Positions 6,467-15,776 of a stretch of 15,776 nucleotides of DNA are shown here, one piece after another. The stretch spans positions 1 through 15,776 of the forward strand of contig JBBQRQ010000115.1 of NCBI GenBank assembly GCA_038214755.1, written 5' to 3'. Position numbers and translations under genes: made by a program. The notes beneath the pieces are model-generated. The model did not search any database. It was not told where the DNA came from and was given only the letters and a program-made list of their open reading frames with translations. Within the stretch, counting starts at the first letter, position 1; the number at the start of each line of letters is the position of its first letter. Source of the DNA: Verrucomicrobiota bacterium (GTDB taxonomy: Bacteria; Verrucomicrobiota; Verrucomicrobiia; Limisphaerales; CANJXF01).

Positions 6467-6525
6467 ATTTTGAGCGGCTTCAAAGAATGCCCGCCCCGGG
6501 TGTGATTTCAACTGACGGTCAGGAC

Positions 6526-6628
6526 AAAAGCGCCAGAGGACTGGCGCACTCCAAGACGCTTCGCGCCGTTCATGTGCCATCGAAGTTCGCGTGAGCGTCT
6601 TGGAGTGCGGCGGTCCTCCGCCGCTTTT
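6526..6628. repeat. REP-like inverted doublet (GGAG-type); each arm has its own hairpin
   Basis: AAAAGCGCCAGAGGACTGGCGCACTCCAAGACGCT ... AGCGTCTTGGAGTGCGGCGGTCCTCCGCCGCTTTT. Confidence 0.85.
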
Positions 6629-6678
6629 AACAGCACCGGTAATGACCGCCACTTGGAATCACGCCCGCCCGCGTCTCC

Positions 6679-6713: not shown

Positions 6714-7145
6714 ATGAACAGAGCTCCTGAACTTTTTCCGATTGACAGCATCACTCCGCTGGAATGGGCGTGGGTGCAGGATTTGATCCAGGAGGTTCAG
6801 CGACAGGAACTGGGCGATGCCTTCGCGAGAAATTTGGGTGAATGGGATTTGGCCGTCCGCCAGTTCCGCAAAGTGGAATATCGTCGCATCATTCTCGGCT
6901 CGCCGACGGAAGATGACTTTCTTCATCACGCGGCTTGCCTTCACGCATTGCTCGCGTTGGGAAATATTTTATTGATGGAAACGCGCAAGTTTTCCGATTC
7001 CGATCTGACCGCCCTTGGCATTGCACGACAAACAGTGGCTGCTTATGTCGCCGAACTGGAACAAAGTTTTCGCGAATGGCATCACGGTATTTCTGAAACA
7101 GAATTGAACGCCGTAAGGGAAAAAATTTTCGGTGGCACGCCCTGA
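6714..7145 (+). CDS. Hypothetical protein (predicted all-alpha), first gene of a two-gene cassette
   Basis: 143-aa ORF with a promoter-like sequence directly upstream; overlaps the next ORF. Confidence 0.7.
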   Translation: MNRAPELFPIDSITPLEWAWVQDLIQEVQRQELGDAFARNLGEWDLAVRQFRKVEYRRIILGSPTEDDFLHHAACLHALLALGNILLMETRKFSDSDLTALGIARQTVAAYVAELEQSFREWHHGISETELNAVREKIFGGTP

Positions 7146-7356
7146 CTACATCGCGCAGCTTCACGCCGCTAAATACGATTTGAGATTTTGCAGCGGCGAA
7201 GAAAAATTAGGTATGCTTCGTCGATACCGCGCGGCTCTACAGGAAGCAGCTCGGAAGGCCGGCATCACGGAGTATCTTTTGGAAGCGGCTGTAGCGCGTG
7301 ATTTCGGTGAATGGGTGAAACAGGAGAAACTTCCCAAACCGCCCAAATCTTCGTGA
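7132..7356 (+). CDS. Small basic hypothetical protein, second gene of the cassette
   Basis: GTG start overlapping the upstream ORF by 14 nt; 74 aa, amphipathic-helix-like composition. Confidence 0.6.
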   Translation: MARPDYIAQLHAAKYDLRFCSGEEKLGMLRRYRAALQEAARKAGITEYLLEAAVARDFGEWVKQEKLPKPPKSS

Positions 7357-7549: not shown

Positions 7550-8128
7550 ATGAGCGCGATTCTAAAAACGGACGGAGTGATTTCGCCGGAGGAATATATC
7601 GAAGGCGAATTGTTATCGGAGATTCGGCATGAATACGTGGAAGGCCGCGTTTACGCAATGGCAGGTGCGAGCGCCGATCATAACCGAATTGCGGGAAATA
7701 TTTTTGGGGAACTTCGGGAACGATTGCGTAGAAGCAAATGCGAGGCCTTCATCAATGACATGAAAGCCAGAATTCCGCCGCATTTTGCCGATGCTTTTTA
7801 TTATCCCGATGTCATGGTGACTTGCGACCCAGCGGATGACGCGAAGTATTTTCGCGAACGCCCCTCCTTTATTTTCGAAGTGCTCTCGCCCGACACGGAA
7901 CGGACCGACCGCCGGGAAAAAGCGATCTCTTACCGACAGATTTCTGGTATCAAAGCCTATGTCATTTTTGAGCAGGATCGCATCGCGGCCACCGTTTTGC
8001 GGACTGCGGAAGTCGGCTGGGCCAGCGAAACTCTCGAAGGGAAAAGTGCGCTGCTAAAACTGCCGGAAATCGGCATTGAGATTCCATTGGAAAAATTTTA
8101 TGAGCGCACTACAGCCGGCAAAAAATGA
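7550..8128 (+). CDS. Uma2 family (DUF820) PD-(D/E)xK endonuclease
   Basis: EEY...E..SEIRHEYVEG.VYAMAGAS..HNRI, YYPDVMVTCD, P.FIFEVLSP.T...DR.EK...Y. Confidence 0.93.
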   Translation: MSAILKTDGVISPEEYIEGELLSEIRHEYVEGRVYAMAGASADHNRIAGNIFGELRERLRRSKCEAFINDMKARIPPHFADAFYYPDVMVTCDPADDAKYFRERPSFIFEVLSPDTERTDRREKAISYRQISGIKAYVIFEQDRIAATVLRTAEVGWASETLEGKSALLKLPEIGIEIPLEKFYERTTAGKK

Positions 8129-9025: not shown

Positions 9026-10585
9026 CTATTTCACTCGCGAAAAACTCTCCGCCATCGCCACGGCTTTCAACATCGCCCTGGCTTTATTGACCGTTTCCTG
9101 GAATTCGGATTCCGGTTCCGAATCATTCACCCAACCGCCTCCCGCCTGCACATACGCTTTGCCCTCTTTGATCAGTGCCGTGCGAATGGTGATGCAGCAA
9201 TCCAGGTTGCCGTTGAACGAAAAATAGCCGACGCATCCGCCATACGGCCCGCGCGTAGTTTGTTCCAGTTCAGAAATAATTTGCATCGCGCGAATCTTCG
9301 GCGCGCCGCTGAGAGTGCCGGCCGGAAATGTGGCGCGCATCAAGTCGTAGGGCGTTTTGTCGCCGGAAAGTTTTCCTTCGACCTGCGAAACGATGTGCAT
9401 CACGTGGCTGTAACGCTCGGTGGTCATCAAGTCCTTCACTTGCACGGAACCATACTCGCAGACGCGGCCCAAATCATTTCGCGCGAGGTCCACCAGCATG
9501 ACGTGTTCGGCTCGCTCTTTCGGGTCGGCCAGCAATTCTTTTTCGAGGGCCGAATCTTCTTCGACGTTTTTTCCACGACGACGTGTCCCGGCAATGGGAC
9601 GAATCTCCACCTTGCGATCTTCGCAGCGAATGTGAATTTCCGGCGACGCGCCCACCAGAGAAAATCCATCCAGCTCCAGCAAAAACATGTAGGGCGACGG
9701 ATTGATTGTGCGGGCGGCGCGATAAATATCCAGCGGCGACGCCTTCACTGGCACGGAAAAACGTTGCGAGCCGACGACCTGAATAATGTCCCCGTCCGTG
9801 ATGTATTTTTTGGCTTTGAGAACATTCTCGAAAAACTTTTCCTTCGTGACGTTCGAGGCGAATGGAGGTTCAGGAATTTCTCTCGGCGGCGTGACGGGAA
9901 TGTGTTCGGTCGGTTGTTCGAGGAGCGCGATCAATCTTTCGATTTCGCCGAGTGCGTCTTCGTAGGCCTCTTCCGGTTTGGTGTTTTCTTCCAAAATGGC
10001 GTTGACCAAAACCGTCAGCGTTTGTTTGACGCGATCAAAAATAAGCAACTCGTCCGCGATTAAAAAATACATCGTGGGCGTTTTCAATTCGTCGTGCGGC
10101 GGACGCGGCACGACGGGTTCAACATCGTGAATAAATTCGTACCCGATAAAACCAACCGCGCCGCCAGTGAAGCGCGGCAGTTCCGGCAGCGATACCGCTT
10201 TGTATTTTTTCAGAACGCCTTCGATGACTTCCAAGCCGTCACTGACGCGGTAGGGCGCGTCACTCCGTGCGCGCCGCTCGTCGGGTAAAGGACTGCCCGC
10301 CCTGCCTTTGGTTTCAAAACTTTCAACGACTTTTCCATCTTCAATCACCTCGACGCGACTGCCCGTTTGTTTGATGACGGCGCGCGGATGGCAACCGACA
10401 AACGAGTAACGCCCGATGTGTTCACCACCTTCAACCGATTCAAAAAGAAACGATTCGCCTTGCCCTCGAATTTTTCGATACGCGGAAAGCGGCGTTTCGA
10501 AATCAGCGAGAATCGTGCGAGTGACGGGAATTAAATTTCCCCGTTTCGCGAGATTTAGAAATTCAGATTGCGTCGGATGATACAT
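9026..10585 (-). CDS. trpE: Anthranilate synthase component I
   Basis: [115 protein letters not shown]. Confidence 0.95.
10249..10306. repeat. GTAG-type REP doublet inserted in-frame inside trpE
   Basis: GGTAGGGCGCGTCACTCCGTGCGCGCCG (10249-10276) is identical to intergenic 12048-12075 and is followed by a degenerate opposite-facing unit (revcomp GGCAGGGCGGGCAGTCCTTTACCCGACG). Confidence 0.85.
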
Positions 10586-10592
10586 GCAAAAA

Positions 10593-10895
10593 CTATTTCA
10601 TATCGCGCAGGCGGGATTTCCAATAGCCGGGTTTTCGTTTCAAATGCATGACCGCCAGAATAAAGATTCGCTCGTCGTCCACGACATAAATGATTCCGTA
10701 CGGAAAATGGTGCGTGAGACAGCGGCGGGTTTTGCGGGAAAGTTGTCCCCAAGTAAGCGGATTCTGACAGACCCTGGAAATTCCATCCTCAATCTCGGCC
10801 ACAAATCTGTCTCCCAATCCCTCAGCTTGCTGGTCGTAATAATGGGCCGCGTCGGAGTATTCCTGTTCTGCTGCTGGATGAAACTTATAGTTCAT
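10593..10895 (-). CDS. Type II TA toxin, RelE/ParE family
   Basis: MNYKFHPAAEQEYSDAAHYY...GLGDRF...RRCLTHHFPYGIIY...ILAVMHLKRKPGYWKSR; likely start is the ATG at 10895. Confidence 0.9.
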   Translation of the reverse strand: MNYKFHPAAEQEYSDAAHYYDQQAEGLGDRFVAEIEDGISRVCQNPLTWGQLSRKTRRCLTHHFPYGIIYVVDDERIFILAVMHLKRKPGYWKSRLRDMK

Positions 10896-10952
10896 GAAAC
10901 CGGCAGAACGTAGTTCGACAATCCCGTCAAGAATTTTATATGCAACCAAACC

Positions 10953-11189
10953 CTACTTTTTGCGATTGCGAACCCGTTGAAGAACCTGAGGCCCTGGGAT
11001 CGCCTGCACTTTGCCGGATTTAATTTCTTCATAACGTCGATCTGCTTCCTCGGCCCAAAGAGCGTCCAATTTCTCATTCTCCAACTCAAGGCTTTCTAAA
11101 AGTTCCTGCGCCAAACGCGCCCGTGTTGAATGCGGCAAAGAAAGCGCCTGCTCGCGAAGTTCTTGTAAATTTTGAGTGGCCAGAGTCAT
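10953..11189 (-). CDS. Putative addiction module antitoxin (TIGR02574-like)
   Basis: ALSLP...RARLAQELLESL...LDALWAEEADRRYEEIKSGKVQAIPG; lies upstream of a ParE-like toxin; TTGACC-17-TAAGTG-6-ATG upstream. Confidence 0.88.
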   Translation of the reverse strand: MTLATQNLQELREQALSLPHSTRARLAQELLESLELENEKLDALWAEEADRRYEEIKSGKVQAIPGPQVLQRVRNRKK

Positions 11190-11273
11190 TGGAAACACTT
11201 AACAGACGCAGAATTGTCGGTCAAGAATTCAGCCTTTCCGCCACGGCTAACGCATCTAAATTTACATTTCTCA

Positions 11274-11335
11274 TTAACACCGTGGCTTTAGCCCGGTGTA
11301 GGGCGCGCGACGAGGGTTTAGCCGTTTCAACGGCT
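11274..11335. repeat. Palindromic REP/MITE-like element with two hairpins
   Basis: TTAACACCGTGGCTTTAGCCCGGTGTA ... AGCCGTTTCAACGGCT; the CTTTAG-loop hairpin resembles IS200/IS605/RAYT-type ends. Confidence 0.55.
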
Positions 11336-11498
11336 TGTCGAACGTTCGAATACAATCGATTTAGAAACCGAGAATGACTTTGATCAACTTGCAGAAAAAA
11401 TTTGAGGTTGGTGCGTTCAGGAAATGAGAAAGAAAAGTTTTCGAAACGCGGTTGACGGTATCGCAAAGCTTTTACCCGGCCTAAAGGCTTAAAAGATT

Positions 11499-12017
11499 CT
11501 AGCCTCTCTTCCGTATTCGCCACACCGAAAGCAACGTGTAGAAAAGCACGGTGATGGCGTAAGCGACGATTCCCAAACCGATGGCGAGCGGAATGGCGTA
11601 ACGGCTGAAATAAATCAGCGCGCCGCCGACCAAAACGAACAGAGCGGTTTGCGCGACGAGACAAAATAAATAAAGACCGAGATGCGTTTCAATGAGACGC
11701 GCCACGAACCAATCGCGATAACCTTCTTCGCCCAGCGTGCGCATGAGCCAGGCCTGTTGGAAATTTCGCGCTGCCACCAGAATACTCGTCGTGGAAATGA
11801 TGATCGACATCATTGGATAAAAAGAAAACGTGACGCAGAGGGCGACGTTTACCAACAGGCCGAGTTTCCAACCGAGTTTTTTCGCGAGCGGATTTCCTTC
11901 GAGGACCAGATTGGGCGTCGCGATCCACGTGCTCAGAAAATCCGCGCCGCGTGAAAACAAAAGCAGCGCGAGCAAAATAAAATATTCCCGACTCGCAAAT
12001 AGAACGGCGTCTTCCAT
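11499..12017 (-). CDS. Conserved hypothetical integral membrane protein
   Basis: Several hydrophobic segments and a DFLSTWIATPNLVLEGNPLA motif; lies between hisI and trpE. Confidence 0.8.
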   Translation of the reverse strand: MEDAVLFASREYFILLALLLFSRGADFLSTWIATPNLVLEGNPLAKKLGWKLGLLVNVALCVTFSFYPMMSIIISTTSILVAARNFQQAWLMRTLGEEGYRDWFVARLIETHLGLYLFCLVAQTALFVLVGGALIYFSRYAIPLAIGLGIVAYAITVLFYTLLSVWRIRKRG

Positions 12018-12047
12018 GAAAAAATCTCAGCCGCCCACGTGTAATGA

Positions 12048-12075
12048 GGTAGGGCGCGTCACTCCGTGCGCGCCG
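12048..12075 (+). repeat. Intergenic GTAG-type REP, identical to the copy in trpE
   Basis: GGTAGGGCGCGTCACTCCGTGCGCGCCG; stem GGCGCG...CGCGCC. Confidence 0.85.
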
Positions 12076-12115
12076 TTCGGTATTTGAGCTTGCGGCGCCA
12101 ATGTTATTCTCCAGT

Positions 12116-12502
12116 TCATTTCTTGCCGTAAATTTGTTCCGGAGTTTCGAGTTGCGCCTCGGTTATTTTGAAATCGTTTTTATTTTCCACCGAGCGAAAA
12201 AAACAGGATTGATAACCTTCATGGCAAGCCGCACCGGTTTGTTCGACTTGAATAAGCAGCGTGTCGCCGTCGCAATCGAACGAAATATCTTTCACGGTTT
12301 GGGTGTGGCCGCTCTGTTCGCCTTTCCTCCAAAACTTTTGGCGCGACCGACTCCAAAAATGCGTTTGGCCCGTCTCGATGGTTTTCTCCAGGGCCGCGCG
12401 GTTCATCCACGCCATCATCAACACGCGGCCAGTTTTTTGTTCCTGCACGATTGCGGGAATCAGACCATCCACAGTGAAGTTCAATTCTTCAAAAAAGCTC
12501 AT
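12116..12502 (-). CDS. hisI: Phosphoribosyl-AMP cyclohydrolase
   Basis: GLIPAIVQ...[46 protein letters not shown]. Confidence 0.96.
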
Positions 12503-12508
12503 TCGCAA

Positions 12509-12908
12509 TTAGTGATCGCTGATGTCGGTTAGTGATTTGGGAGCCGCGAGTGGCTTTTCCGGGGGGAAAGTAAACGCCACCGCCGCCAAAATGCAAACGA
12601 ACGCCGCGCGATGATTCCATTTAATTTTTTCGCCCAAATAAAAAGTAGCGAAGCCGCCAACCACAACTAGCGTGATAACTTCCTGGATGATTTTCAGTTG
12701 TGTCGCCGAATAAAAACTATTTCCCCAGCGATTGGCCGGAACCATCAAACAATATTCAAAAAACGCGATGCCCCAACTCACAAGGATCGCCAGCACGAGC
12801 GGCTTGCTCTTGAATTTCAAATGGCCGTACCAAGCAACGGTCATGAAGATGTTGGAAAAGGTTAACAGCACAATCGGCAGCGAGCGGGATTGGGAATAAT
12901 GAGTTCAT
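12509..12908 (-). CDS. DMT family membrane protein (DUF486-like); the natural ATG at 12908 is 1 nt out of frame, with an in-frame GTG at 12871
   Basis: SNIFMTVAWYGHLKF, SWGIAFFEYCLMVPANRWG, QLKIIQEVITL. Removing one C at 12892-12894 gives MNSLFQSRSLPIVLL..., coupled (ATGA) to the toxin stop. Confidence 0.85.
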
Positions 12909-13234
12909 AAATCTTCAGGAGCGATCTCGCCCAGGGCCAGACGCGCGCCGTGGCGGACATGCAGGATGTGGACGTCGCCTTCGCTCACAGTGAAAAGGAT
13001 TCGATACTTGTGCTGACGGCGACCGTGGAAAATCTCGCGAATTTCAGCGTTGAGAAACTTGCTTTCAGGCGCGAACGGGCAACGTTCGGGAAAAATCTCC
13101 AGCGACCCGATCGTGTCGTAGATGCTGTCGAACCAGCGGTCAGCGGCGTCTGGATCGCGCTCCGCCAGCCACGCGTGGGCTTCCGCGATGTCCTGCTGTG
13201 CGGGAAGTTCAACGATGACGTTCCACCGCTTCAT
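12905..13234 (-). CDS. Type II TA toxin, RelE/ParE family
   Basis: A.QDIAEA..W...DPDAADRWF, SLEIFPERCPFAPES, YRILFTV, VHILHVRHGAR; ATGA overlap with the antitoxin. Confidence 0.9.
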   Translation of the reverse strand: MKRWNVIVELPAQQDIAEAHAWLAERDPDAADRWFDSIYDTIGSLEIFPERCPFAPESKFLNAEIREIFHGRRQHKYRILFTVSEGDVHILHVRHGARLALGEIAPEDL

Positions 13235-13509
13235 TTTTTGCGGCGGGGAATCTTGTGCTTGGCGCGGATTTCATCAAGCGCTTGGCGGAATGGCTTGCCT
13301 GTGCCGGTTTTCATCGCATCCAAACCGCGTTGGATGCCACGGATGGCGTCCAACATTTCCTCAAATGCGGCGGCATCCTGCACGATCAATTCCGCCTTGC
13401 CGTTGACGGTCAAAACTTCGGGTCGCCCGGTGACTTTGAGACGGCGCAAATGGCTTTTGGTGTTCCGCTGAAAATCGGTGAGCGAGCGAATGTCTTCTAA
13501 AGCAATCAT
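13231..13509 (-). CDS. Type II TA antitoxin, Phd/YefM family
   Basis: DIRSLTDFQRNT...LK.TGRPEVLTVNGKAELIVQDAAAFEEM; alternative start 13542; palindrome TTGAATTCAA at 13514-13523 may be an operator. Confidence 0.9.
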   Translation of the reverse strand: MIALEDIRSLTDFQRNTKSHLRRLKVTGRPEVLTVNGKAELIVQDAAAFEEMLDAIRGIQRGLDAMKTGTGKPFRQALDEIRAKHKIPRRKK

Positions 13510-13541
13510 AGCGTTGAATTCAATGTTTTTTCCATGCTGCA

Positions 13542-13640
13542 TTAAGACGAAGTGGGAAGCAAGTCTGCGAACATCTTGAAAATGTTCGAGCAGATGAGCA
13601 GCACAATCGGCAGCCAGCGGGATTGAGTGCGTTCGTTCAT
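13542..13640 (-). pseudogene. Duplicated, truncated 5' end of the DMT gene (32-aa mini-ORF)
   Basis: Reads MNERTQSRWLPIVLLICSNIFKMFADLLPTSS*; 13599-13625 matches 12866-12892 at 26/27 nt. Confidence 0.85.
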
Positions 13641-13700
13641 TTTTTTTTGGAAATTTAATTTTGCGTGGGTCTCCTCAAAAGCGACCGTGACGGACGTGTG

Positions 13701-14015
13701 TTACGATTCCATTTCTAAAGCAGGCAGGTCCATATTGCCAGGCCGCACCCGCAATAGAATTATCTGCTTATCCTCCTGCACAGAGTAGAAGATCAGCCAG
13801 CGAGGAAATTGTTTGATTCGCCACGAACGAATGCCCCCGGTCTTCAGGTCGGCTCGTTCCCTGCCGACCTGCGGATGTTGCTGGAGAAAGCGGATCGTTT
13901 CCTTCAACGACTGATACCAACGTTCAGCGACTTCCGGCCCGGCGTTCTGATTCAGCCAGGTCAATTCCTCGGCCAAATCCAGCAGAAAGCGGGGACGTTT
14001 TCTGACCGCGATCAT
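13701..14015 (-). CDS. Type II TA toxin, RelE/ParE family
   Basis: RPRFLLDL.E...WL..NAGPEVAERW, HPQVGRER, IRSWRIKQFPRWLIFY, ILLRV; ATGA overlap with the upstream gene. Confidence 0.88.
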   Translation of the reverse strand: MIAVRKRPRFLLDLAEELTWLNQNAGPEVAERWYQSLKETIRFLQQHPQVGRERADLKTGGIRSWRIKQFPRWLIFYSVQEDKQIILLRVRPGNMDLPALEMES

Positions 14016-14266
14016 GCCTTGCGTTTCAAGACCCGGTCACGAATTGCGTCCATCTCCGCTTCGGTCAACGGCGATTCCGGCCCGCTCGCCAACGCCTCGT
14101 CCACCCACCGTTGATCTCGTTTGGTGTTTAGCGCCGCGTCTATCTCGAACGTCCGCTCAAGCCGCGCCAACGCTTCCTGAGTCAACGAACGGAAATTGGC
14201 GGCGGCCTCATTTTCCAACTGCGCGCGCAAATCTTGGGGAACATCTTTCAAGGTGATGTCGGACAT
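14012..14266 (-). CDS. Antitoxin with an Arc/ribbon-helix-helix N-terminus and ParD-like C-terminus
   Basis: ITLKDVPQDLRAQL...AAANFRSLTQEAL; VDEALASGP...MDAIRDR; coupled to the toxin. Confidence 0.82.
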   Translation of the reverse strand: MSDITLKDVPQDLRAQLENEAAANFRSLTQEALARLERTFEIDAALNTKRDQRWVDEALASGPESPLTEAEMDAIRDRVLKRKA

Positions 14267-14300
14267 GGGAGAACGATAACAACATTGGAATGGTTTTCAA
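14267..14300 (-). promoter_or_regulatory. Putative leaderless promoter of the TA module
   Basis: TTGAAA-16 nt-TATCGT (preceded by TGn)-6 nt-ATG(14266). Confidence 0.55.
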
Positions 14301-14353
14301 GCTCGCGCCAATGTTGCGTCCAGCCGAATGCAGACCGATGACCCGAACGAATT

Positions 14354-14500
14354 TCAACGGGGTGAACGCGAGATTTTATATTTGGCCCGAATGCGATCCA
14401 AAACTTTGCGTGCCGGTTTGCCTTTTCCCTCCTTCATCGAATCCAATCCACGTTGGATTCCGCGAATAGCGTTGACCATTTCTTCGTAGGCAGCGGCGTT
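14354..14500 (-). pseudogene. C-terminal half of a second Phd/YefM antitoxin (paralog of 13231-13509)
   Basis: Translates NAAAYEEMVNAIRGIQRGLDSMKEGKGKPARKVLDRIRAKYKISRSPR* versus DAAAFEEMLDAIRGIQRGLDAMKTGTGKPFRQALDEIRAKHKIPRRKK. Not in the ORF track. Confidence 0.85.
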
Positions 14501-14880
14501 CTTTTCCAATCGTGACTTTCCAGCACAGCACGAAGTTGAGGAATCGCTGAACGTGCGGCGGGACCGATCTCACCGAGAAATCCGGCCGCTTCGGGTTGTT
14601 GATAAAAGTGAAGCTCTGTATTCAACAAGCTGGCAACTTGCGCCACAACTTCCGGGATGTGTTCGGGTGAACTGAGGTTGAGCGCCTTGGCGGCGGCAAA
14701 CCTCATCGTTCCCGAAGATGATGTCGTCATGATGTCGCGCAGGACGGCCACACCCTCTGGCTTTCGCGCGGGCGCAAGCTTCATCAGAGTCTCCGCAGCC
14801 GCAATCCGTACCGGCTCTTCTTTATGAGCGAGTAACTTCGTCAACTCTACCAGCACCGGGGCTGCGCAAGCCGCCGGACT
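14501..14880 (-). pseudogene. HEAT-repeat protein fragment
   Basis: VRIAAAETL, MRFAAAKAL, AAGFLGEIGPAARSAIPQLRAVL. No convincing start; the 3' end runs out of frame into the antitoxin remnant. Confidence 0.65.
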
Positions 14881-14892
14881 TCAAATCGGAAC

Positions 14893-14960
14893 GTAGCAGC
14901 CGACGTAAGGAGGCTCTGACTTTTCCGAATTAGAATGAGCCTCCTCACGTCGGCTGCTAC
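14893..14960. repeat. GTAG-type REP inverted doublet
   Basis: GTAGCAGCCGACGTAAGGAGGCTC (14893-14916) and GAGCCTCCTCACGTCGGCTGCTAC (14937-14960), 23/24 nt complementary. Confidence 0.9.
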
Positions 14961-15082
14961 AACCGCACCGGAATATTTCTCTCCGCCAAAAATTTCTTCA
15001 CGTCGCCAACGGTGTAATCCCCGAAATGAAAAATGCTCGCGGCCAAGACGGCGTCGGCTTTGCTGTTTTCGTAACCGGGCAT
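14957..15082 (-). pseudogene. hisF: Orphan 3' end of imidazole glycerol phosphate synthase cyclase subunit
   Basis: Translates [52 protein letters not shown]...IPVR is the HisF C-terminus. Not in the ORF track. Confidence 0.88.
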
Positions 15083-15411
15083 CAGGCTGGTTGCAGCGGG
15101 GAACCGGAAGTTTTTTCCAAAGCCGTTTTCGCCAATCGCCCCAGGCGGACGGCGCGTTCGACGGCTTTGCGCGCGTAATGGTGATGCTCCCGCGCGCCGG
15201 TCAGCAATCCTTCGACACCGATATCGGCGTCAAGCTCCGGCCAATAGACTGACGAACCATTGATCTCGAACCGACCGCGCTCCTGCGGAGTTGCCAAAGG
15301 GAGCGTTGGATAAAATGCAATTGGCACGCTGATGAACCGACCGTCTTCGAGATGGAAGCCAAGCAGTTCGTCGGTCACGACCACTTCAGTTACGGTTGGG
15401 GGCATTTGCAT
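15082..15411 (-). CDS. DUF2442 domain protein (partner of DUF4160, TA-like)
   Basis: [26 protein letters not shown]...[17 protein letters not shown]; start 15411 or 15405. Confidence 0.88.
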
Positions 15412-15424
15412 ACGCAGGCAGAGT

Positions 15425-15637
15425 CTAATTCTCGTGGCGCCCGTGTTCAAGCCAGCGTTCAACTATTTCCGCGCGGCGTTCCGAAATCACTCGGCGAATT
15501 TCGGCGGTTTCGCTCGGTTTGAATCCTCGATTAAACCCGACCGAAAGATCGTCCAGCCAAACCTTGCATTCGTGGCCGGCCTTGAAGACGTGAACATGCA
15601 TCCGTTCAGCCAAATCATAGCTGTGTAAGCTGACCCG
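15425..15637 (-). pseudogene. DUF4160 domain protein, 5' end cut off by the IS630 insertion
   Basis: RVSLHSYDLAERMHVHVFKAGHECKVWL...NRGFKPSE...IVERWLEH; the frame runs directly into the CTAG junction. Confidence 0.8.
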
Positions 15638-15776
15638 CTAGTCTAGTGTCCCATAAATGACTATACTTATTTTCTTCGCTTTTTCCGCTTTTTCTTTTGC
15701 GACCAGCCCGGCTTGATCGTTTCCAAGGCGGCTCGCCCCCGCGCGACCTTGTCCATGATTTTTTGAACCGTCGCGG
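15638..15776 (-). mobile_element. IS630-family insertion sequence, downstream end
   Basis: Terminal CTAGTCTAGTGTCCCATAAAT with a CTAG/TA target typical of IS630; contains the transposase C-terminus. Confidence 0.8.
15667..15776 (-). CDS. IS630-family transposase, C-terminal fragment (continues beyond the window)
   Basis: ATVQKIMDKVARGRAALETIKPGWSQKKKRKKRRK* resembles the tail that follows the IS630 'PFVWTA' motif. Confidence 0.75.
   Translation of the reverse strand, partial: ATVQKIMDKVARGRAALETIKPGWSQKKKRKKRRK

Follow-up and report, generated by a model that had tools for sequence, protein, structure and literature searches.

Background

Genomic islands integrate in the 3' ends of protein genes, as e14 does in icd, and integron arrays stack cassettes rich in toxin-antitoxin (TA) modules. 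Insertion of restriction-modification (RM) genes with long target duplication was reportedly described by Nobusato in 2000. The current analysis concerns a window of 15,776 nucleotides from an uncultured Verrucomicrobiota bacterium of sediment (GCA_038214755.1), which is the entire contig C115 (JBBQRQ010000115.1) of a 5.1 Mb metagenome-assembled genome (MAG) of 175 contigs, and in which TA-type modules lie between genes of a His/Trp operon beside second copies of host-gene ends, referred to here as stubs. The HisI of the window has its closest named relatives in the Verrucomicrobiota, several of them labelled Limisphaerales or Pedosphaera. We consider it probable that modules of this kind enter by homology-anchored, additive insertion of DNA from related species through the cell's own recombination, and so come to lie beside leftover host-gene ends.

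Gene-end islands and integrons resemble this arrangement in the spare end that restores the target and in the stacking of TA-rich cassettes. Integrase islands have a fixed att core for each gene, whereas here the stub lengths vary (erosion is possible) and 5'-anchored cases occur as well. Integrons are characterised by IntI and attC, whereas here no integrase is found within 2 kb and no junction motif is shared, a dedicated attC model not having been run.

[quoted passage not shown] As here, the inserts hold no mobility genes, are shorter than 20 kb and have variable direct repeats of more than 30 bp, with one module of the window (module 4) cut by an insertion sequence (IS). The cargo there is RM genes and the repeats are near-identical, whereas the cargo here comprises TA, other defence and miscellaneous genes and the repeats have diverged as orthologues do. 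Tens of cases were known across all the genomes then sequenced, whereas about 80 sites, with tandem stacks, are present here in one genome.

A displacement model with a homologous anchor and an illegitimate joint (homology-facilitated illegitimate recombination, HFIR) has been advanced for type VI secretion system (T6SS)/Rhs arrays (Kirchberger 2017; PMC5361080). Those arrays share with the present loci a single homologous anchor, older parts pushed downstream and growth by repetition, the illegitimate joint being a proposal in our case. In T6SS arrays the conserved part of the toxin is the anchor, and what is displaced is an orphan immunity gene or the end of a toxin, whereas here dozens of housekeeping genes serve as anchors, at either end, and the encoded protein is unchanged. 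Minimal mobile elements (PMC3898611) and hotspots free of mobile genetic elements (Oliveira 2017; PMC5635113) are explained by replacement through double crossover. These also hold alternative whole-gene cassettes between conserved genes without an integrase, exchanged by flanking homology; a cassette is replaced there and leaves no stub, whereas here cassettes are added and stubs remain (in the window and in the relatives G005, G042 and G088). Transformation-driven tandem duplication has an experimental precedent in pneumococcus (PMC3784515).

The gene-end cassettes are best read as a variant form both of HFIR and of insertion with long target duplication. Single cases of this kind are known; the scale of about 80 places is not, and we found no paper describing the pattern with TA cargo or in Verrucomicrobia in a search that left most subscription papers and supplements outside. 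What is new lies in the cargo of TA and defence genes, in the evidence that the anchors are foreign, in the occurrence of 5' and 3' forms, in the stacking and in the apparent rebuilding of the window from single-cassette states.

Duplicated gene ends in the window and across the genome

A first-pass annotation, made from the letters of the window, had pointed to four co-oriented TA-type modules. Pfam bears this out with three ParE matches, Unstab_antitox (TIGR02574), DUF2442 and DUF4160, and weakly with Phd and ribbon-helix-helix (RHH)-like antitoxins, all on the minus strand. The host-gene scars that it listed, a second 5' end of a drug/metabolite transporter (DMT) gene and an orphan hisF 3' end, are real by sequence comparison. 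The half antitoxin is likewise present, with 65% identity to the C-terminal half of the window's Phd, as are palindromes of the repetitive extragenic palindrome (REP) type at 10249, about 11245-11344, 12046 and 14893-14960; the IS end at 15638-15776 had been overlooked. Along the minus strand the order is IS end, truncated DUF4160 gene, DUF2442 gene, hisF 3' stub, REP, HEAT remnant and Phd 3' half with ParE start, followed by RHH-ParE, DMT 5' stub, Phd-ParE, DMT, hisI, REP, membrane gene, REP, TIGR02574-ParE and trpE (Table 1). No duplicated host end was detected around the TIGR02574-ParE module, which lies in the gap between the membrane gene and trpE.

The whole genome was scanned for displaced gene ends. 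Our own gene caller gave 5109 genes, and 6 kb on each side of every gene were searched for the ends of that gene, with the gene middle and the opposite strand as controls; tandem paralogues were removed and about 3000 genes counted. With protein windows, 3' ends were found downstream 48 times and upstream 4 times, and 5' ends upstream 17 times and downstream 5 times, the middles giving 0-5 per class. A codon-blind DNA scan gave 51 against 2 for 3' ends and 20 against 2 for 5' ends. By these polarity counts the pattern of the window exceeds chance. Both scans together comprise 81 sites in 75 intervals, or 2.0% of the genome; the 62 protein-found sites include probable others (PEP-CTERM tails, a paralogue, gaps without cargo), which are retained in the counts.

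The stubs stop at the stop codon, or start at the start codon, and are positioned across the cargo from the live gene; homology ends at most 4 nt from the stop codon in 20 of the 27 sharp 3' cases. The stubs, which form the direct repeats, vary in length from 30 to 621 nt (median 93), and the cargo measures 129-5818 nt (median 863 nt). The host genes include purB, thrS, lysS, serS, pheT, gatA, accC, pyc, ilvD, glyA, mutS, lipA, nadA and purC, and a strong NCBIfam match (1e-60) is found for 33 of 61 hosts as against 19 of 61 random genes of the congener G001 (p 0.017). The best candidate for a recent event is serS (L093:2191-4223), where a near-identical 5' stub (125/126 nt) and apparently a second short stub bracket two small gene pairs; tkt, with 96% identity, is another site of probably recent date. 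Random samples held no site in 385 kb of G001, one in 400 kb of G055 and one in a matched 385 kb of this genome; they are too small for a comparison of rates.

Such a polarity would not arise from assembly artefacts, which makes it extremely improbable that the doublets come from a chimeric assembly of strains or species in the metagenome, even for a MAG of 175 contigs with no long reads. In a separate assembly of the matching run, one unitig spans 12050-14961 and both DMT starts, with an even depth of 18-30 across the unique pieces, and the same anatomy is seen in G059 and G051, assembled in 2 and 4 contigs respectively.

TA genes are enriched between the duplicates: of 105 TA genes 18 lie there, and for the remaining small genes the figure is 106 of 1678 (p 2e-4). 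Sixteen of the 75 intervals hold a TA gene, where 2.4 are expected and 9 was the maximum in 2000 draws, the four families having been listed independently. The case considered in the first-pass annotation, that gene-end duplicates might be no commoner beside TA modules than elsewhere, is therefore not what is found. By our reading of the Pfam table, a TA-type family occurs in 26 of 60 distinct protein-found intervals. Among 137 cargo proteins scanned there are TA and other genes and no RM pair.

Origin of the second copy

The mismatches between live ends and stubs are distributed over the three codon positions as 229:176:678 in 71 DNA-found pairs, that is 63% at third positions, and as 126:87:405 in the 24 longest pairs (at least 150 nt). 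The dN/dS ratio is about 0.2 in the protein-found set, a value biased low by the mode of detection, and the copies have few internal stops. A locally decaying pseudogene would not give such a third-position bias, whereas two ends each serving a working gene in different lineages would; the anchor is therefore likely to come from a diverged orthologue. The proposal that gene ends act as homology anchors is supported by the analysis.

The same counts bear on true long target duplication, in which a break, made for instance by nuclease cargo, is repaired with the resident sequence copied on both sides, and the copies afterwards diverge or are partly converted. This would leave a dead copy changing evenly over the codon positions, and it would not explain why old and new junctions match different relatives. 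We think it unlikely. In its favour are a few near-identical pairs, such as that at serS, and the published account of the process for RM genes, where start or stop sites are often spanned (PMC2853133).

The DMT doublet gives a view of successive states. In the downstream DMT gene the ATG at 12908 is off the frame by one base, the gene being open from a GTG at 12871; the in-frame start is in the stub. The expectation that the host gene is restored and a diverged duplicate left behind is hence borne out in its second part and not cleanly in its first. In G002 an RHH-ParE pair directly precedes an intact DMT gene, and the window aligns with it at 79% over 500 nt, through ParE into the stub; in G001 and G253 a Phd-ParE pair directly precedes DMT. 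Judged from these alignments, the window appears to be the G002 state (RHH-ParE-DMT) superimposed with the G001/G253 state (Phd-ParE-DMT). The DMT stub is therefore likely to be the older start, and Phd-ParE likely arrived together with a DMT start of its own, by addition instead of exchange.

Close DNA homologues (at least 78%) of the Phd-ParE module number four among 251 genomes, and all four, from three families, lie in the same interval. Site fidelity of the modules is not general. None of 19 other loci has the DUF4160-DUF2442 pair beside hisF; in 9 of the 19 the pair follows an aldehyde dehydrogenase gene (a 3' stub being present in 5), and in 1 it follows a different gene that has a stub. 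The aldehyde dehydrogenase stub lengths across genomes are 43, 20, 38, 32 and 35.

The same operon and stacked stubs in relatives

For comparison of the hisF-trpE region 40 loci of relatives were fetched, in which the usual backbone is hisF-(DMT)-hisI-membrane gene-trpE. Variable cargo at this operon had been predicted and is observed, more than 400 nt being inserted behind hisF in 9 of the 23 relatives' loci that include hisF. Stubs in the hisF region are found in the window, in G005, in G042 (one stub) and in G088, and in G001 the membrane gene and trpE have stubs. The locus of G005 contains the live hisF, a pair of the AbrB-like/PIN type, a first hisF stub, a REP accompanied by a small gene, another stub and AbiTii. 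The hisF stub of the window together with its REP matches the live hisF end and REP of G042 (83%, 205 nt) and also the first stub of G005, and the hisF stub lengths differ among genomes (34, 84, 52, 21 and 16 codons).

A module of a 209-aa and a 58-aa gene is present at hisF in 10 of 30 loci. This pair (L304:1491-2286, on C20 of G000, the genome of the window; L291-L320) has no Pfam or NCBIfam match, is widespread in the order, often behind hisF, and resembles an unnamed TA module; inspected by eye it seems nucleotidyltransferase-like. The 209-aa gene is trimmed to its last 37 codons behind a REP in both G005 and G042.

Other genes have collected stubs as well. Extra downstream pieces of thrS lie on the same contig in 10 of 61 genomes and 3' stubs of purB are found in 5 of 41. 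Five stub clusters follow thrS in G005, where purB is followed by three stubs; G059 has three pieces behind thrS and G024 two behind lysS. Among the cargo of relatives are Wadjet, AbiTii, TOTE, MazEF, HEPN/MNT, Schlafen, a methylase, RAYT (REP-associated tyrosine transposase), non-defence genes and many unnamed pairs.

In G005 the interval from purB to its first 3' stub (L260:1678-8218) is occupied by a complete Wadjet-type operon, and a RAYT gene (NF047646; L251:2678-3505) is the first cargo behind the live thrS. The thrS region of the window's own genome, G000 (L094:895-6031 and L268, C42:18394-39300), contains many thrS pieces of two sequence types, among them internal ones that match the G005 type at 90-94% and a copy of 300 codons in inverted orientation. 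The C-terminal types of thrS differ among congeners, at 63% in G005 and 85-91% in G001, G002, G006 and G007.

Integrases, REPs and junctions

The genome has 17 Y1_Tnp matches and 5 tyrosine-recombinase matches. The lack of an integrase noted in the window extends to the whole set, a tyrosine integrase or Y1_Tnp match (the two families searched genome-wide) being found within 2 kb of 0 of the 75 intervals. The junctions share no motif: the top 4-mer occurs in 9 of 27 against a null mean of 9.2, and none is above chance.

These data reduce the likelihood that the intervals are eroded islands of the prophage, integrative conjugative element or satellite type, placed in gene ends by an integrase (including one acting in trans) and stripped down to their TA and defence genes. 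The anatomy is that of e14 in icd, foreign spare ends would likewise differ at third positions, five tyrosine recombinases are encoded in the genome and several long cargoes start with a helix-turn-helix gene. Against this, the 81 sites lie at unrelated genes and are of both 5' and 3' types, stub lengths vary at one and the same gene, the median cargo is small and neither an integrase nor a common motif accompanies the junctions, so that we regard this origin as unlikely.

It had also been suggested that REPs nicked by a RAYT/HUH enzyme mobilise the modules or trigger their integration. The genome does encode the Y1_Tnp proteins and contains about 2086 dispersed repeats, present behind 34% of gene ends; in three genomes the hisF stop codon is overlapped by a REP, and RAYT is itself cargo in the thrS array of G005. 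The REPs are nevertheless depleted in the intervals, lying inside 7 of 47 3'-type and 3 of 15 intervals where 21.9 and 7.6 are expected, and they are depleted beside the outer ends of the stubs too; together with the lack of a junction motif this leaves the suggestion quite improbable. A REP stands beside the outer end of the stub in 7 of 47 cases, below the rate for gene ends at large, and no Y1_Tnp match lies within 2 kb of the 75 intervals.

ComEC, DprA and a PilB-type ATPase are encoded, and the host may take up DNA. With no nearby enzyme, no shared motif, variable stub lengths and ComEC/DprA, host recombination acting on incoming DNA is the simplest reading.

Proposed mechanism

Under homology-anchored insertion, the incoming DNA of a related species would carry a module together with one gene end serving as the anchor. 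The anchor may recombine with the resident gene and become its live end, and the other end of the incoming DNA could join inside the resident gene, by an HFIR-like joint or by circularisation followed by one crossover. The old gene end and old cargo would thereby be pushed outward, and repetition would give stacked cassettes. The polarity of the stubs would follow if only events that leave a whole gene survive. Ordinary double crossovers in flanking genes likely spread the cassettes between lineages, and the over-representation of TA cargo probably reflects a penalty on its loss through recombination of the repeats.

Several points weigh against this mechanism. HFIR is reported usually to delete target DNA. 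It is also reported to be rare (PMC5361080). No donor and no same-species empty site was seen, and the contigs of one sequencing run, which is probably the genome's own source and whose contigs cannot show absence, have no circle, joint or empty site at the window or at serS. The variable stub length may equally reflect erosion after insertion. Of the 11 other genomes with RHH-ParE, only 1 has this module before DMT, and the hisF ends of 8 carriers of one module behind hisF are not significantly more alike (permutation p 0.15). As regards the cargo, 87 of the 105 TA genes are without a detected duplicate, 0 of 20 Uma2 genes are bracketed by detected duplicates and much of the cargo is not TA. 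A full hisF is moreover absent from the assembly by tblastn and Pfam, and because of this the hisF stub can be called a duplicate of a live hisF only by reference to relatives, from whose sequences it would be one. The live hisF probably lies in an assembly gap; hisA, hisD and hisI are intact, and no IS left end in the assembly carries a matching flank.

At C11:55726-56180 of the same genome (G000), the place at which hisF stands beside a lipoprotein cluster in congeners is taken by a small TA-like pair and another gene, so that the synteny upstream of hisF is broken.

Other features of the window

The coordinates of the features are collected in Table 1. Scans of the window with Rfam and for tRNA gave no matches. 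We take the IS at its right-hand end to be IS630-like from its CTAG ends, a family search being without a match, and the contig breaks there because the end of this multicopy IS is located at that point. The opposite contig end (1-145) is likewise a multicopy repeat end, 99-100% identical at three contig ends, beside which lies the 3' part of an aldehyde dehydrogenase gene (142-762), 86% like a copy on C43. A long REP doublet at 6494-6667 occurs at many loci of the genome (>100 BLAST matches). Two unannotated small genes (143 and 74 aa, a TA-sized pair) and a Uma2 gene (6714-7356 and 7550-8128) are found downstream of a 473-aa gene. The trpE gene carries an in-frame REP copy (10249-10280) that is 97% identical to the intergenic copy at 12048-12079.

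Table 1. Features of the trpE-hisF portion of the window, with positions counted from its first nucleotide
Feature	Position	Strand	Basis
trpE, host gene	9026..10585	-	Pfam
ParE toxin, module 1	10593..10895	-	PF05016
TIGR02574 antitoxin, module 1	10953..11189	-	Pfam Unstab_antitox, TIGR02574
REP-type dispersed palindrome	11245..11344	.	genome BLAST, k-mer scan
Conserved 172-aa membrane gene, host backbone	11499..12017	-	adjoins hisI in 31 loci
REP-type repeat	12046..12079	.	repeat search, k-mer scan
hisI, host gene	12116..12502	-	PF01502
DMT_6 gene, 5' end likely arrived with Phd-ParE	12509..12908	-	Pfam
ParE toxin, module 2	12905..13234	-	Pfam; contiguous with DMT in G001, G253
Phd-like antitoxin, module 2	13231..13510	-	Pfam below cut-off; 84% DNA over 614 nt to G034
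DMT 5' stub, 25 codons, in-frame ATG, likely displaced earlier start	13566..13640	-	83% DNA over 52 nt to live DMT
ParE toxin, module 3	13701..14015	-	Pfam
RHH antitoxin, module 3	14012..14266	-	Pfam, weak
Phd gene 3' half running into ParE start, remnant of a further module	14306..14502	-	genome BLAST
HEAT-repeat gene remnant	14434..14856	-	PF13646
REP palindrome overlapping hisF stop codon	14893..14960	.	repeat search
hisF 3' stub, 34 codons (15061-14960) and stop, likely displaced earlier end	14957..15063	-	91% to relative's HisF
DUF2442 gene, module 4	15082..15411	-	Pfam
DUF4160 gene, module 4, truncated by the IS close to its 5' end	15425..15637	-	Pfam, BLAST
Multicopy IS right end	15638..15776	.	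100% identical at 5 other contig ends

Implications

Double-crossover models explain the swapping of cargo at integrase-free hotspots, and not its first addition or stacking. At about 80 loci the additive step proposed here leaves a scar that is polarised and can be counted, and relatives allow earlier states to be reconstructed, so that a simple scan and a transformation assay can put the question to the test. A broader and tentative possibility is that the ends of core genes in Limisphaerales/Pedosphaerales might together act as a distributed, enzyme-free integron, with cassettes that circulate among genera and families, home to the orthologue, exchange its terminus for a foreign allele at each event, stack by order of arrival and are held by TA addiction; this could be a main route for the entry of TA and antiphage genes into operons and the start of integrase-free hotspots. 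The stubs mark candidate defence genes, and marker genes, thrS among them, may have foreign terminal segments, a point of consequence for gene trees.

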